From IMG/VR virus record IMGVR_UViG_3300014691_000037: a stretch of 5,230 bases of DNA. One strand, given 5' to 3'. A program made the translations under genes and the position numbers. The notes under the pieces were generated by a model. That model was given only the letters and a program-made list of their open reading frames with translations. It ran no database searches and was not told where the DNA came from. Source of the DNA: a virus. Its lineage: Duplodnaviria; Heunggongvirae; Uroviricota; Caudoviricetes. Each line of letters opens with the position of its first letter. The first letter of the stretch is position 1. Below, in pieces: positions 204-4,787 of the stretch.

Positions 204-611
204 TTATTTTATTGATTTATTTTTACGCGCTTTAAGCATTTCTTCGAAGAGTTTGTTGAAGTTTTCTACTCTTGCGCGCATTTCAGACAGCAAGGCTTCC
301 TGCTCGGAAGATGGAAGAGCATCGAATAATTCGATCAATTCTTTGTGGTTGGGAGTTAGCTCTGTTTCCACATGAAGTTCTTGTGCAGGCACTGGTGCCT
401 TGTCTTCGTCACCAAACATTAGCCATGTAGGTGAGCACTTCAGAGCATCCGCTAAAGCAAACAATCGTTTTCCGACTGGCTGGGTTTCGTCTCTTTCCCA
501 TTGTGAAATTGTGACGTGAGCAACTCCAGCGAGGCGCGCAGCTTCTCGTTGTGTTAAGCGTAATTCTTTTCGTCGCGCCAGAACTCGCTGGCCTAGGGTT
601 CTTGTATCCAT
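204..611 (-). CDS. dicA: Prophage immunity repressor, XRE-family helix-turn-helix, DicA-like (135 aa)
   Basis: Complete minus-strand ORF (ATG 611..609, TAA 206..204). N-terminal HTH with the XRE/Cro-C1 signature (...QREAARLAGVAHVTISQWERDETQP...). Length and C-terminal segments (...CSPTWLMFGDEDK..., ...MRARVENFNKLFEEMLKAR...) match my recollection of E. coli Qin-prophage DicA. Divergent from a small Cro-like gene. No strong Shine-Dalgarno upstream. Confidence 0.85.
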   Translation of the reverse strand: MDTRTLGQRVLARRKELRLTQREAARLAGVAHVTISQWERDETQPVGKRLFALADALKCSPTWLMFGDEDKAPVPAQELHVETELTPNHKELIELFDALPSSEQEALLSEMRARVENFNKLFEEMLKARKNKSIK

Positions 612-919: not shown

Positions 920-1376
920 ACAGGCTCGTGAGGCTCTGGATGCCTGGATATGTCGACCAGGAATGACACAGGAGCAGGCGACGATATTAATCACTGAAGC
1001 ATTCTGGGCTTTGAAAGAGCGCCCGAACATCGATGTTCAGCGTGTCACAGATGAAGGTGGCGCGGTTGATCAGCGAGCGCTTGGCGTTAATCGAGTGAAG
1101 ATATTCGAACGCTGGAAGGCTATCGACACCAGGGATAAGCGTGAAAAGTTCACGGCGCTAGTGCCTGCAATTATGGAGGCTATCCGGATTAATGATTTCA
1201 GGTTGTATCGTGAAATTAGTGACGGAAAAAGCATCACGTACATGATCGCCGGGTTAAACAAAGAATATGGCGATGTGGTGGAGTCCGGACTGCTTTTTGC
1301 TGATCCTGCCGTAGTGGATCGTGAAACTGACGAACTTATAGAAAAAGCAANNNNNNNNNNNNNNNNNTGGTTATAA
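903..1376 (+). CDS. Prophage early-region protein of unknown function (position of YdaT/cII-type genes); C-terminus interrupted by an assembly gap
   Basis: ATG 903 overlaps the upstream stop by 17 nt. Backbone-like G+C. The 17-N run (1351..1367) falls 7 codons before the apparent TAA (1374..1376), so the true frame, length and end are uncertain. Confidence 0.6.
   Translation: MKITPEQAREALDAWICRPGMTQEQATILITEAFWALKERPNIDVQRVTDEGGAVDQRALGVNRVKIFERWKAIDTRDKREKFTALVPAIMEAIRINDFRLYREISDGKSITYMIAGLNKEYGDVVESGLLFADPAVVDRETDELIEKAXXXXXXWL
1351..1367. other. Assembly gap / masked bases (17 N)
   Basis: Literal run of n characters in the sequence. Confidence 0.95.
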
Positions 1377-1390
1377 ACACACAGCTTGCG

Positions 1391-2305
1391 ATGAAGATTG
1401 GCTTAAATGAAGCCATTGTGTTGCAGCAGTTGCATTACTGGTTGAGAGATACCAATTCCGGCATGGAATGTGATGGTGTTCGCTGGATTTACAACACAAC
1501 GGAACAATGGCTGGAACAGTTCCCATTCTGGTCAGAGTCAACGTTAAAGCGCGCGTTTGCAAGTCTGAAAACGCTGGGGCTTTTGCGTTGTGAAAAGCTC
1601 AATAAATCAAAGCGCGATATGACCAATTTCTACACGATTAACTATGGGAGCGAGCTTTTAGATGATGGCAAATTGAGCGAATCCATCGGTTCAAAATGCG
1701 CCGCTCCATCAGGTCAAAATGACACGATGGAAGAGGTCAAAATGAAACGCTCCATTGATTCAAAACGACCCAATGTCATCGGGTCAAAATGGCCCGATGA
1801 TCCTACAGAGAATACAACAGAGATTACTACAGAGAATAAAAACACTTTTCGTCCGGAAGCTTCGCAACCGGACCCGCAGACGGCTGAACAGGATTTTTTA
1901 ATCCGGCACCCTGGCGCAGTTGTGTTTAGTGCGAAAAAACGCCAGTGGGGTAGCCAGGAGGATCTGGCGTGTGCGCAGTGGATATGGGGGCGGATCGTGG
2001 GTCTCTACGAACAGGCCGCCAGTGATGATGGCGAGATCATGCGACCAAAAGAGCCTAACTGGACTGTCTGGGCCAATGATGTGCGCACAATGCGGATGCT
2101 GGATGGCAGAAGCCACAGACAAATTTGCGAAATGTTTGGTCGGGTACAGCGGGATCCATTCTGGGTAAAAAACATCATGAGCCCGTCAAAACTCCGCGAA
2201 AAATGGGACGAACTGGTCATCCGCCTGGGACGTTCACCTGTACAGCGTTGTGTGAATCATATTTCTGAACCGGATACAGAAATTCCGCCTGGTTTCAGAG
2301 GATAA
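1391..2305 (+). CDS. Phage replication initiator (lambda O-like organisation: N-terminal winged-helix DNA-binding region, origin inside the gene, distinct C-terminal domain)
   Basis: 304-codon ORF. N-terminus (NEAIVLQQLHYWL...WIYNTTEQWLEQFPFWSESTLKRAFASLKTLGLL) resembles winged-helix domains of phage replication initiators. The middle of the gene carries five iterons and an AT-rich repeat block, exactly as lambda ori sits inside O. No Shine-Dalgarno precedes ATG 1391 and the gap lies 24 nt upstream, so the start is uncertain. Confidence 0.8.
   Translation: MKIGLNEAIVLQQLHYWLRDTNSGMECDGVRWIYNTTEQWLEQFPFWSESTLKRAFASLKTLGLLRCEKLNKSKRDMTNFYTINYGSELLDDGKLSESIGSKCAAPSGQNDTMEEVKMKRSIDSKRPNVIGSKWPDDPTENTTEITTENKNTFRPEASQPDPQTAEQDFLIRHPGAVVFSAKKRQWGSQEDLACAQWIWGRIVGLYEQAASDDGEIMRPKEPNWTVWANDVRTMRMLDGRSHRQICEMFGRVQRDPFWVKNIMSPSKLREKWDELVIRLGRSPVQRCVNHISEPDTEIPPGFRG
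1684..1791. repeat. Iteron array: five direct repeats with core (G)GTCAAAATG at ~23-bp periodicity (putative ori iterons)
   Basis: Read directly: TCAAAATG at 1691, 1714, 1737 and 1784, and TCAAAACG at 1760; spacings 23, 23, 23 and 24 bp. Flanking consensus is roughly CATCnGG-TCAAAATG-nnnCG. The repeats encode a repetitive linker (…SIGSKCAAPSGQNDTMEEVKMKRSIDSKRPNVIGSKWPDD…). Confidence 0.75.
1804..1850. repeat. Three 12-bp periodic ACAGAGA(A/T)TA repeats plus an A-rich tract (putative DNA-unwinding element of the origin)
   Basis: Read directly: ACAGAGA begins at 1805, 1817 and 1829, followed by AATAAAAACAC. Located immediately after the iterons; encodes low-complexity TENTTEITTENKNT. Confidence 0.55.
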
Positions 2306-3035: not shown

Positions 3036-4787
3036 GTGCTTGATTATTTATCAAAGCTTCCTTTACCGGCTGAGCAAATACCACAGGGTTTAAAGGACCT
3101 ATTATTTGTTGAAGACAATTCTAACCCCCAGCGAGAAGTTACTGTAACCCATCATTACGAAAGAAATAAGTATCAAGATGACTATGATTACACTCATATG
3201 ATCATGGCCGTAGTTCCTGAGAATGATGTTGCAAATCTAAGTGTGTTACGTGAATCCCGTGACGGTGTCGTCACATTTTCCACTCAGGACTGTACAGAGA
3301 AAGGTGGAGCTTGGGGTACAGATATATCTATCTCCGGTTATGGGTATATTGTAGCTTCTTGGGGTTCAAGTCTTCACTACTCCTTTTTGTTGGCCGAAGA
3401 TGTCTGGATGAAACTGGGATTAAAACCAAGGCTCATAGGGGATGATGAACAAAAAGTAATTTTTGATGAGGTTTCTTCGCCATCATATGGAGTCGTGCAA
3501 GGCGATGTCTCAAGAGAATATCATTTCAAAAGCAACAAAGATATTAAATGGACAATGAGGAATGATTACCTCAGAAAATATTTATGGATGAAAGGTTGTG
3601 TTGGAGTAAAAGTTTTTTTCTTCGAAGCCTATATCGAACGAACTAAAGAGGTACTCGGACTCTTATCAGGTTCTAATCACTTTAGAATCGAACTTCCTTG
3701 GATTGAATTTGAAATAGTTGACCATACAGATAGGATATTGCTGCAAGCATGGGGAACTGTTCAATCTGTTCAGCCAGAGCTTTGCTCTGAATTAGATGTC
3801 AACACATTAGTATGGCCCGGTCACAAGTCACCGATAACAATGTCGGGAGCTACCGATTATCGTAGTGGCGAATACGTATATGTTGATGATGCTTTTCTTA
3901 CTAAATATGAAAAAGATAAGACATACGAAGCCATTCCATTTTTTTATGGCAATCACTATCATGCAGATCCTAGCTATGGCGGGCAATGGGCATTTAGAGG
4001 CTGTACTAGAGTCGGTAGGAACTTAGTGAAAATATATTTTTATGATCTTTACCAAGGAGTTCCAGAAAAGGAAATATATCATGTGTTTGATTATGCGAAA
4101 GACCAAAGCCTTATTGATACTAATTCATTAGATAATGAGCATATTGTTTCTAAGACTTTTAGATTTGCTAGAGAACTAACTGAGCTTAATGGAAATCTAG
4201 TGTCTCTAGGTAGAGTTTTAGATGTTCCCCTATCGAGTTCTGATATTTTTGAATACAACAGAGACGAACTAGATGAAGAAGGCATTAGAAATTATCCTGT
4301 ACTGCAAAAGCTTGCTCATGTAGCCTCAATCGATATGCAAGAGCAAGATTTCCTAGCTAGATGCAAGACTATAAACGAGATCATTACTAAAATTAAAACT
4401 GGTTCATTGAAGAAATTAAGTATTGCTATGGGGGTGAAGGCTGAGGATATTGAAAGATTGCAAACGCTAAAATTATTGCAAGGAATATTAAACCTTACAA
4501 GTGTTATTAATGAGCAAAATGAAGAGCAATCCGCGCTAAAACATGCCAATGAACTTGCAAAGTATAATTCACCCAATCATACATTAGCAGCTCTATTTAT
4601 AAATAATGACTTGAGGAACGCTGAAGCTCATGAAGCAGTCAATAAATCCATTGAACATCTAGCTAGTCTTGGTTTTGATAGCGCAACTTTGGCATCCGGT
4701 TATAGCCATGCTTTAGATTTTATATTTGATCAAATTATTGAGAGCTTGAGGAGTTTTAATTCGACTTTAAATGAAGTCCTGCACTAA
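3036..4787 (+). CDS. Large hypothetical protein (583 aa) on an AT-rich foreign insert; candidate single-gene phage-defence/abortive-infection protein with a C-terminal HEPN-like R-N-x-x-x-H motif
   Basis: GTG 3036 lies 6 nt after GGAGGG (3024..3029); stop TAA 4785..4787. G+C about one third by hand count (19/60 at 4081..4140) against ~60% in the phage backbone (36/60 at 1021..1080). Aromatic-rich N-terminal ~400 aa not recognised; helical C-terminal ~160 aa contains LRNAEAHE (residues 526-533). Confidence 0.85.
   Translation: MLDYLSKLPLPAEQIPQGLKDLLFVEDNSNPQREVTVTHHYERNKYQDDYDYTHMIMAVVPENDVANLSVLRESRDGVVTFSTQDCTEKGGAWGTDISISGYGYIVASWGSSLHYSFLLAEDVWMKLGLKPRLIGDDEQKVIFDEVSSPSYGVVQGDVSREYHFKSNKDIKWTMRNDYLRKYLWMKGCVGVKVFFFEAYIERTKEVLGLLSGSNHFRIELPWIEFEIVDHTDRILLQAWGTVQSVQPELCSELDVNTLVWPGHKSPITMSGATDYRSGEYVYVDDAFLTKYEKDKTYEAIPFFYGNHYHADPSYGGQWAFRGCTRVGRNLVKIYFYDLYQGVPEKEIYHVFDYAKDQSLIDTNSLDNEHIVSKTFRFARELTELNGNLVSLGRVLDVPLSSSDIFEYNRDELDEEGIRNYPVLQKLAHVASIDMQEQDFLARCKTINEIITKIKTGSLKKLSIAMGVKAEDIERLQTLKLLQGILNLTSVINEQNEEQSALKHANELAKYNSPNHTLAALFINNDLRNAEAHEAVNKSIEHLASLGFDSATLASGYSHALDFIFDQIIESLRSFNSTLNEVLH

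Follow-up and report, generated by a model that had tools for sequence, protein, structure and literature searches.

A probable lambda-like replication origin of palindromic iterons and conserved 12-mers inside the initiator gene of an Escherichia coli prophage

Iteron origins that lie inside the gene for their own initiator form a known kind of replication element. In RepA_N replicons, the origin iterons sit in the middle of the rep gene, and the encoded protein's C-terminal domain recruits host replication proteins. There are iteron plasmids whose Rep proteins bind, in single-stranded form, the 13-mers that are repeated in the unwinding element, with the DnaA-trio as the related case in bacterial oriC. 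The reference architecture for such origins in phages is that of bacteriophage lambda, whose origin (oriλ) consists of iterons, an A-rich tract and a palindrome within gene O (PMC7466680), and whose O protein has been reported to bind A/T-rich single-stranded DNA (PMC7466680). The annotated lambda iterons are spaced by 20, 24 and 23 base pairs (bp), and the A-rich tract that follows them leads to the palindrome GTCAGAGAATTC-TGGC-GAATCCTCTGAC, as read from the lambda sequence. Here we analysed a stretch of viral DNA of 5,230 nucleotides (nt) (IMG/VR record IMGVR_UViG_3300014691_000037; this whole stretch is called the window below), the content of which, as judged by its open reading frames (ORFs), Pfam and PHROGs, is the immunity and replication region of a lambdoid Escherichia coli (E. 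coli) prophage. We propose that positions 1661-1873 are very probably the vegetative (theta-type) origin of this lambda-like, Qin/mEp460-like prophage, situated where its own initiator gene codes for the linker, with origin activity being what we infer from the arrangement and the comparisons described here.

An earlier note, made from the letters of the window, had described five iterons of 23-bp period, three 12-bp repeats and an A-rich tract inside the initiator gene and had likened them to the lambda origin. A pattern search, shuffled controls and repeat alignment agree on the five cores, since TCAAAAYG occurs exactly five times, at 1691, 1714, 1737, 1760 and 1784, always on the plus strand (0.72 copies expected, and 0 of 200 dinucleotide-preserving shuffles attain five), with no further iteron copy elsewhere in the 5.2-kb window. 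In a repeat search, the 23-nt units align at spacings of 23, 23, 23 and 24 with 70-100% identity as iteron 1 (1684-1706, CATCGGTTCAAAATGCGCCGCTC), iteron 2 (1707-1729, CATCAGGTCAAAATGACACGATG), iteron 3 (1730-1752, GAAGAGGTCAAAATGAAACGCTC), iteron 4 (1753-1775, CATTGATTCAAAACGACCCAATG) and iteron 5 (1777-1799, CATCGGGTCAAAATGGCCCGATG), all on the plus strand. Iteron 5, which adjoins the 12-mer block, is the best palindrome of the set (an inverted repeat that is 91% complementary), and the consensus of the five units, CATCGGGTCA-AAA-TGACCCGATG, is a perfect palindrome with 10 of 10 positions paired. The number of five given earlier holds for these clear units and falls short for the total, because a sixth, degenerate unit (iteron 0, 1661-1683, plus strand, GATGATGGCAAATTGAGCGAATC) stands in register upstream and keeps the CA-N3-TG core. 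Positions 1661-1799 accordingly carry six in-register 23-bp units with spacings of 23, 23, 23, 23 and 24, and the position of iteron 0 is taken by a good iteron in the close relatives mEp460_4F5 and a Klebsiella phage. Tandem Repeats Finder (TRF), the kind of program suggested earlier for checking the repeats, reported the 12-bp block but did not detect the 23-bp array in the window; it overlooks this array because the copies are too divergent, so that a repeat search and a pattern search are needed.

The array begins, with its clear units, 344 nt into the initiator gene, compared with 348 nt for the annotated iterons in gene O, and it lies in the middle of its gene as do oriλ and the six-iteron origins of the Stx phages P27 and 933W. 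As in oriλ-type origins, which have four to six dyad-symmetric iterons with an A-tract at the centre and a spacing of 20-24 bp, the units are palindromic, and their core TCAAAAYG resembles lambda's TCAAAACG. By contrast, the arms are GGTCA/TGACC in the window and CCCTC/GAGGG in lambda. Given that 23 is not a multiple of 3 and that the iteron core falls in all three codon phases (encoding SKC, GQN, VKM, SKR and SKW), what is repeated is the DNA and not the peptide. A terminator-like match on the minus strand at 1766-1786 arises from the complementary arms of the adjoining iterons 4 and 5; most likely it is a side effect of the palindromes in the array and no real terminator.

Downstream of iteron 5, the 12-bp unit (A)CAGAGAnTAC is present three times, at 1805, 1817 and 1829, and together with an A-tract these copies make up a proposed DNA-unwinding element (1803-1850, plus strand). 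The three ACAGAGA repeats named in the earlier note are confirmed both by TRF, which reports 1805-1838 with a period of 12 and 2.8 copies, and by shuffling, in which 0 of 200 sequences attain the three copies of CAGAGAnTA seen at 1806, 1818 and 1830 (0.20 expected). Within this element, the stability of 40-bp duplexes along the gene reaches its minimum at 1803-1842 (dG -44.6 versus a mean of -55.1 with a standard deviation of 3.5, thus about 3 standard deviations below), and the 40-bp segment 1810-1849 is 72% AT with 50% A on the coding strand. The A-rich tract reported to follow the iterons is therefore there as the least stable, A-rich stretch of the gene, but it is more than an AT-rich tract and differs from its lambda counterpart in being a specific, specifically conserved CAGAGAnTAC 12-mer repeat. 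The most stable stretch of the gene comes directly after the 12-mer block and holds an imperfect GC-rich palindrome, GTCCGGAAGC-ttc-GCAACCGGAC (1851-1873, plus strand), in the position of the lambda origin palindrome. It lies just beyond the coordinates of the earlier note and appears to be part of the same element. As in oriλ, the iterons are followed by an A-rich, strand-asymmetric and easily melted tract, after which the candidate palindrome, like that of lambda, starts with TTCGTC. The likeness to lambda drawn earlier is upheld in the order of iterons and A-rich tract inside the initiator gene, to which the palindrome would add a third part in the lambda order.

For comparison with relatives, we used five phage relatives, 80 genomic loci from an N-domain profile search and 14 further phage records. 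In most of the Enterobacterales relatives, 9 of the 10 arm positions of the palindrome pair, and the inner pairs differ in a compensatory manner (TTGC/GCAA, TTCC/GGAA, CTCA/TGAG and TTTC/GAAA); 88.7% of cells are paired in the relatives versus 11-37% after sliding the 3' partners by 1-3 columns, and none of 500 shuffles attains the covariation score seen among these relatives. In a relative from Edwardsiella (locus L019, about 3071-3096), the palindrome site carries GAATTCTGGCGAATCC, which has its core in common with the lambda origin palindrome.

The gene that contains these repeats (1351-2305, plus strand, stop codon 2303-2305 in the ORF list) encodes an O-like replication initiator, matching PHROG 391 ('replication initiation O-like') with an E value of 3e-92. 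In agreement with the earlier placement of the repeats inside the initiator gene, the array sits between the parts coding for an N-terminal domain (model residues 1-92) and a lambda-O-like C-terminal domain. Where the window has a run of 17 N (1351-1367), E. coli ATCC 25922 has 82 nt, into which the start ATG and codons 1-10 of the initiator fall; the same 82 nt also include the end of a YdaT-like gene, and the run does not preserve length. Because of this, ORF lengths read across 1351-1367 are wrong, and the 304-aa protein spoken of before is an artefact of the N-run, with the true product being 321 aa long (WP_000054487.1).

The N-terminal domain (1370-1645, plus strand) is predicted to be a winged-helix DNA-binding domain on the basis of an AlphaFold model (mean pLDDT of 85.5, from an alignment of 54 sequences) with the topology H-H-beta-beta-H-H-beta-beta, for which the best Foldseek matches in PDB are all winged-helix DNA binders. 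A search for homologous proteins had yielded short fragments, which served as an alignment for the model but brought no names or domains. Among the Foldseek matches is the N-terminal domain of RepA from the RepA_N replicons pSK41/pTZ2162 of Gram-positive bacteria (4pql, TM 0.62). By contrast with this shared fold, neither the window protein nor its 30 relatives have a RepA_N Pfam match, the structural likeness is a generic winged-helix one (E of about 0.01), and host range and iteron sequences differ. Pfam has no match to the first 100 residues, either of the window protein or of 30 relatives, and the result with NCBIfam was also nil. No relation to the N-terminal domain that defines the lambda O family (Pfam Phage_rep_O) was found by BLASTP, Pfam or hhalign (family profile, probability 0.05), and homology of the two DNA-binding domains is therefore not claimed. 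The C-terminal domain (1892-2221, plus strand; BLASTP, PHROG 2357 and 277) is homologous to that of lambda O, with 34% identity over 148 aa (E 3e-27) in an alignment confined to the C-terminal half. That both the iterons and the N-domain differ from those of lambda bears out the earlier expectation of a distinct initiator specificity.

About 60 homologous genes, from Enterobacterales to Firmicutes, have the same layout. In nearly all relatives from Proteobacteria, and in several from Firmicutes and Bacteroidota, the N-domain is directly followed by palindromes of the form xxxCA-N3-TGxxx with a period of 22-24 bp. Their arms vary by lineage and do so symmetrically (GGTCA/TGACC, GGGCA/TGCCC, GGACA/TGTCC, GTGCA/TGCAC, GATCA/TGATC, TGCCA/TGGCA and CGACA/TGTCG), and the mirrored pair 8:16 has the top mutual information among 253 column pairs (1.19 bits).

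The variation of the arms is matched by variation in the protein. Ser67 of the full protein (model residue Ser57, codon 1538-1540) is the second residue of the predicted recognition helix (1535-1573, plus strand; model residues 56-68 by DSSP on the model), and residue 67 (FPFWSE-S-TLKR) shows the highest mutual information of all N-domain alignment columns with base 3 of the half-site (1.37 bits). The pairings are Ser-T in 22 of 26 cases, Asp-G in 13 of 14, Lys/Asn/Arg-A in 6 of 6 and Arg/His-C in 2 of 2. On a neighbour-joining tree of 94 branches, built leaving out columns 66-67, 9 of the 14 half-site changes share a branch with a change of residue 67 (hypergeometric P of 7e-6). Pantoea proteins that are 90% identical nevertheless have Asp with GGGCA arms in one case and Lys with GGACA-type arms in the other. 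In the 14 held-out phage records, the two commonest pairings were found in 6 of 6 cases (Asp-G 4/4 and Ser-T 2/2), and the three most distant of these phages have no clear array. Taken across many lineages, this co-variation of the iteron sequence with a recognition-helix residue of the same protein sustains the pairing of origin and initiator put forward in the earlier note. It is strong indirect evidence, drawn from sequence comparison, that the encoded initiator reads these repeats through its N-terminal domain, and likewise strong indirect evidence for Ser67, which stands at the beginning of the predicted recognition helix, as the residue that reads base 3 of each half-site.

Comparison by BLAST showed the gene to be a mosaic. 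Klebsiella phages are 77% identical over window positions 1397-1874 and SfII/SfIV-type phages 73% identical over 1836-2214, so that the N-domain, iterons and 12-mers move together and the C-domain is swapped at 1836-1874, a recombination joint that coincides with the palindrome. Since this joint falls on the A-tract and the palindrome, everything from the N-domain through the iterons to the 12-mers behaves as a single specificity module, which recombines with C-terminal modules of different kinds. The N-domain and iteron module is found with a primase-helicase in Pseudomonas AF and Flavobacterium phages, with a DnaB-like helicase in Staphylococcus and Bacillus phages, and with a DnaC-like loader in BcepMigl and phiLdb.

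The same N-domain occurs, at about 50% identity, in the DnaD-like/replisome organiser initiators from Staphylococcus, Bacillus and Listeria phages (PHROG 6493; C-terminal Pfam Phg_2220_C), which also have a 22-23-bp palindromic array directly after it, together with CAGAGAnTAC units. They differ in having a DnaD-like C-domain and adjacent genes for a DnaB-like helicase, a loader or a primase-helicase, whereas the window has a lambda-O-type C-domain and no partner gene. Published origin mapping for these phages was not found in the searchable literature, in which older subscription papers are thinly covered.

The 12-mer block is deeply conserved, reaching from E. coli into the Firmicutes. In 26 relatives, the 34-nt block has 94% DNA identity to the window, compared with 65% for the N-domain DNA and 61% for the iteron array, in a comparison that is somewhat favourable because the loci behind the 94% figure were picked for three units at 12-bp spacing. 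The variable base in (A)CAGAGA-n-TAC is at codon position 2 and nonsynonymous (Asn, Ile, Ser or Thr), and the T that follows it, at a synonymous position 3, is 96% fixed. In eight loci (for example those of Paenalcaligenes, Hydrogenimonas, Staphylococcus caprae and Limosilactobacillus), the 12-mer copies are 10-11 bp apart and in other codon phases. The block is retained across hosts and across partner genes (primase-helicase, DnaB-like helicase, DnaC-like loader or none), with the N-domain as its sole constant companion, and we therefore propose that the initiator itself recognises it. Hosts and partner proteins vary and the iterons diverge, yet the block is nearly invariant; it is therefore probably recognised sequence-specifically, by a conserved part of the initiator and possibly as single-stranded DNA, rather than being kept for mere ease of melting. 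From what is known of iteron plasmids and the DnaA-trio, the arrangement is alike in that a short sequence-specific repeat lies beside the double-strand sites where melting starts; it is unlike them in motif, 12-bp period and protein family, and single-strand binding is hypothetical here.

No P gene lies downstream of the initiator in the window, unlike in lambda, and the initiator ends in a DnaT-like tail. This 21-aa tail, VQRCVNHISEPDTEIPPGFRG (2240-2302, plus strand), is a close match to the extreme C-terminus of host DnaT: phmmer against PDB aligned it to residues 159-179 of DnaT in 2ru8, 6aep and 9zbt (E 6e-4), and the NCBIfam DnaT model matches the last 20 aa of the initiator. An IPxGFRG ending occurs in about 25 Enterobacterales homologues, even in those with other types of C-domain. 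Neither the window nor ATCC 25922 nor the mEp460 records have a P, DnaC or DnaB-like gene after the initiator, nor does the annotation of the complete genome of HannyBb list one anywhere. DnaT mimicry is thus put forward as a hypothesis, from sequence resemblance, for a route to the host helicase loader; a 2026 preprimosome paper does not state what the extreme DnaT tail contacts, and a full-text search on the PPGFRG tail gave nothing relevant. Firmicute homologues (among loci L051-L085) have no DnaT-like tail and end in short acidic-aromatic stretches, as in L078 (...KDDLPF), L051 (...EGDFRFDDET) and L064 (...EPDFDF), which resemble the tip at the C-terminus of bacterial SSB, a pattern suggestive of host-specific docking peptides within a single initiator family.

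The sequence comparisons indicate that the six palindromic iterons are recognition sites for the winged-helix N-domain of the initiator that their own gene encodes, with their dyad symmetry suggesting binding as a dimer. On the model of oriλ and iteron plasmids, the initiator would bind cooperatively along the array, in which the A-tracts are phased by about 2.2 helical turns, and this binding would bend or wrap the DNA into an O-some-like complex, and this complex could destabilise the adjacent A-rich 12-mer block (1803-1842), with the GC-rich palindrome perhaps setting the limit on its distal side. In a more speculative step, the lambda-O-like C-terminal domain and the DnaT-mimicking tail might bring in the host DnaB helicase machinery directly, which is proposed because no phage-encoded P, DnaC or DnaB analogue was found.

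Several points weigh against taking 1661-1873 as a working origin of this kind. For the element or its relatives, the searchable literature, thin for older subscription papers, holds no experiment on binding, unwinding or origin firing, and a full-text search for the iteron and 12-mer sequences and for origins within replisome-organiser genes returned nothing relevant, although such absence is weak evidence. The palindrome at 1851-1873 is paired at 8 of 10 arm positions in the window, which is non-significant when taken alone (shuffle P of 0.14), and with this weak palindrome and the degenerate iteron 0 the prophage copy could be decaying. The recognition rule is imperfect, as the Lys and Arg classes are mixed in the held-out phages, where Asn was also paired with C twice, and the adjacent column 66 co-changes as often as residue 67. 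Of 149 CAGAGA copies, 140 are in one codon phase, encoding T-E-x-T, so that peptide-level selection may contribute to the 12-mer conservation, to which the favourable choice of loci noted above must be added. Finally, the helicase-recruitment step draws on the lack of loader genes and a 21-aa resemblance to DnaT, and is the more speculative part.

One alternative, which we regard as improbable, is that the element is an origin by descent and an inactive relic in this cryptic prophage. Iteron 0 is degenerate and the palindrome has 8 of 10 pairs here versus 9 of 10 in relatives, and the neighbourhood in ATCC 25922 is that of a Qin-type cryptic prophage with dicB, ydfD and a ydfB pseudogene, besides int/xis. 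However, the phage genome mEp460_ev081 shows the same degenerate iteron 0 and the same 8/10 palindrome, and the initiator ORF is intact and 99.5% identical in many genomes.

It is also quite improbable that the initiator-binding repeats serve autoregulation, copy control (handcuffing) or a transcriptional roadblock, with the origin being elsewhere in the prophage. The co-variation shows recognition and not origin firing, and the iterons bound by plasmid Rep proteins are known to act in copy control as well. Yet such a role would leave unexplained both the conserved melting block beside the array and the lambda-like order of parts. The iterons abut the least stable duplex and a distal palindrome as in oriλ, the array and 12-mer block are kept as a unit in every lineage, the 5.2-kb window offers no second iteron copy, and a promoter scan finds no sigma-70-like site in 1300-2400.

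Very improbable is a function of the palindromic units as mRNA hairpins that control how the initiator transcript is translated or how stable it is. A 10-bp stem closed by an AAA loop is possible for each unit, and there are minus-strand terminator-like matches across adjoining units. By contrast, Rfam gives 0 matches at E values up to 1 over the whole window, several units are poor with 5-6 of 10 positions paired, and neither the strict 22-24-bp phasing nor the co-variation with a recognition-helix residue is expected for RNA. The idea that the region is a repetitive peptide linker, made by tandem duplication at the protein level and lacking DNA function, has in its favour the in-frame 12-bp units (TENT, TEIT and TENK) and the location in an interdomain linker, but it is barely credible, being excluded for the iterons by a core in three codon phases that encodes unrelated peptides and by co-varying palindromic arms, and being unlikely for the 12-mers, where it is the nonsynonymous position that varies and the synonymous T that stays fixed, and where copies 10-11 bp apart lie in other phases. 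We also considered a site for partition or packaging and rejected it, since the neighbourhood has neither par nor terminase genes and every lineage has the array tied to its initiator gene.

If 1661-1873 is taken as an iteron origin within its initiator gene, the kind of element is a known one; what is new is an unannotated member of that kind, with an N-domain that has no Pfam model, a legible recognition code and a deeply conserved 12-mer. A broader interpretation is possible, although on balance we doubt it, namely that this is a widespread and so far undescribed origin-plus-initiator module reaching from Enterobacterales to Firmicutes and Bacteroidota. It would use a re-programmable code of one residue for one base (Ser-T, Asp-G, Lys-A and Arg/His/Asn-C), would need the near-universal CAGAGAnTAC as a sequence-specific melting or loading site for the N-domain or another conserved part, and, in Enterobacterales, would do without a phage helicase loader, its copied tail of the host restart protein DnaT diverting host helicase loading to the phage origin. 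The predictions are that a Ser67Asp change retargets the initiator to GGGCA iterons and that the CAGAGAnTAC block is required sequence-specifically. With the origin placed here, and the N-domain, iterons and 12-mers taken as one exchangeable specificity module, the mosaic structure of these prophages is explained. Lambda-derived origins are classic plasmid vectors, and a re-programmable origin of this type could serve likewise. The DnaT-like tail, if functional, would be a compact case of a phage copying a host replisome docking peptide. Since Lamassu-type defence has been reported to sense phage origins with palindromic iterons in lambda (PMC12663957), locating such origins in other prophages bears on studies of phage defence.

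The initiator gene is common in E. coli. It is 99.5% identical to the ATCC 25922 coding sequence for WP_000054487.1, which RefSeq labels 'hypothetical protein'; 3,951 of 5,426 complete E. coli genomes carry it whole or in part, and at least 80% of it is present in 1,846 of them. The deposited phage genomes HannyBb, mEp460_ev081 and PhiR42_1 have initiator genes 96-97% identical to that of the window (97.1% across the gene for HannyBb and 96.7% for mEp460_ev081), and in HannyBb a near-identical module is the sole annotated replication gene. Origin annotation is absent from every record examined.

The other genes of the window are a cI-like repressor gene (204-611, minus strand), a P22-Cro-like gene (689-919), a YdaT/CII-like gene (from 903), a DUF977/Ren-like gene (2346-2768), which is the next gene after the initiator, and a low-GC ORF of 583 aa (3036-4787). 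Between the last two, an inverted repeat, GGCACAGGGCT ... AGCCTTGTGCC, lies at 2813-2852 with a TTGACA at about 2800, just 5' of it, and Rfam gives no match there. The 583-aa ORF has zero matches in Pfam, PHROGs, NCBIfam and PADLOC, and its stretch has 34-41% GC versus 44-52% for 801-2800. In ATCC 25922 this slot is taken by an opposite-strand DUF4209 gene and in mEp460_ev081 by another gene, and it looks like a variable cargo position (moron or defence).

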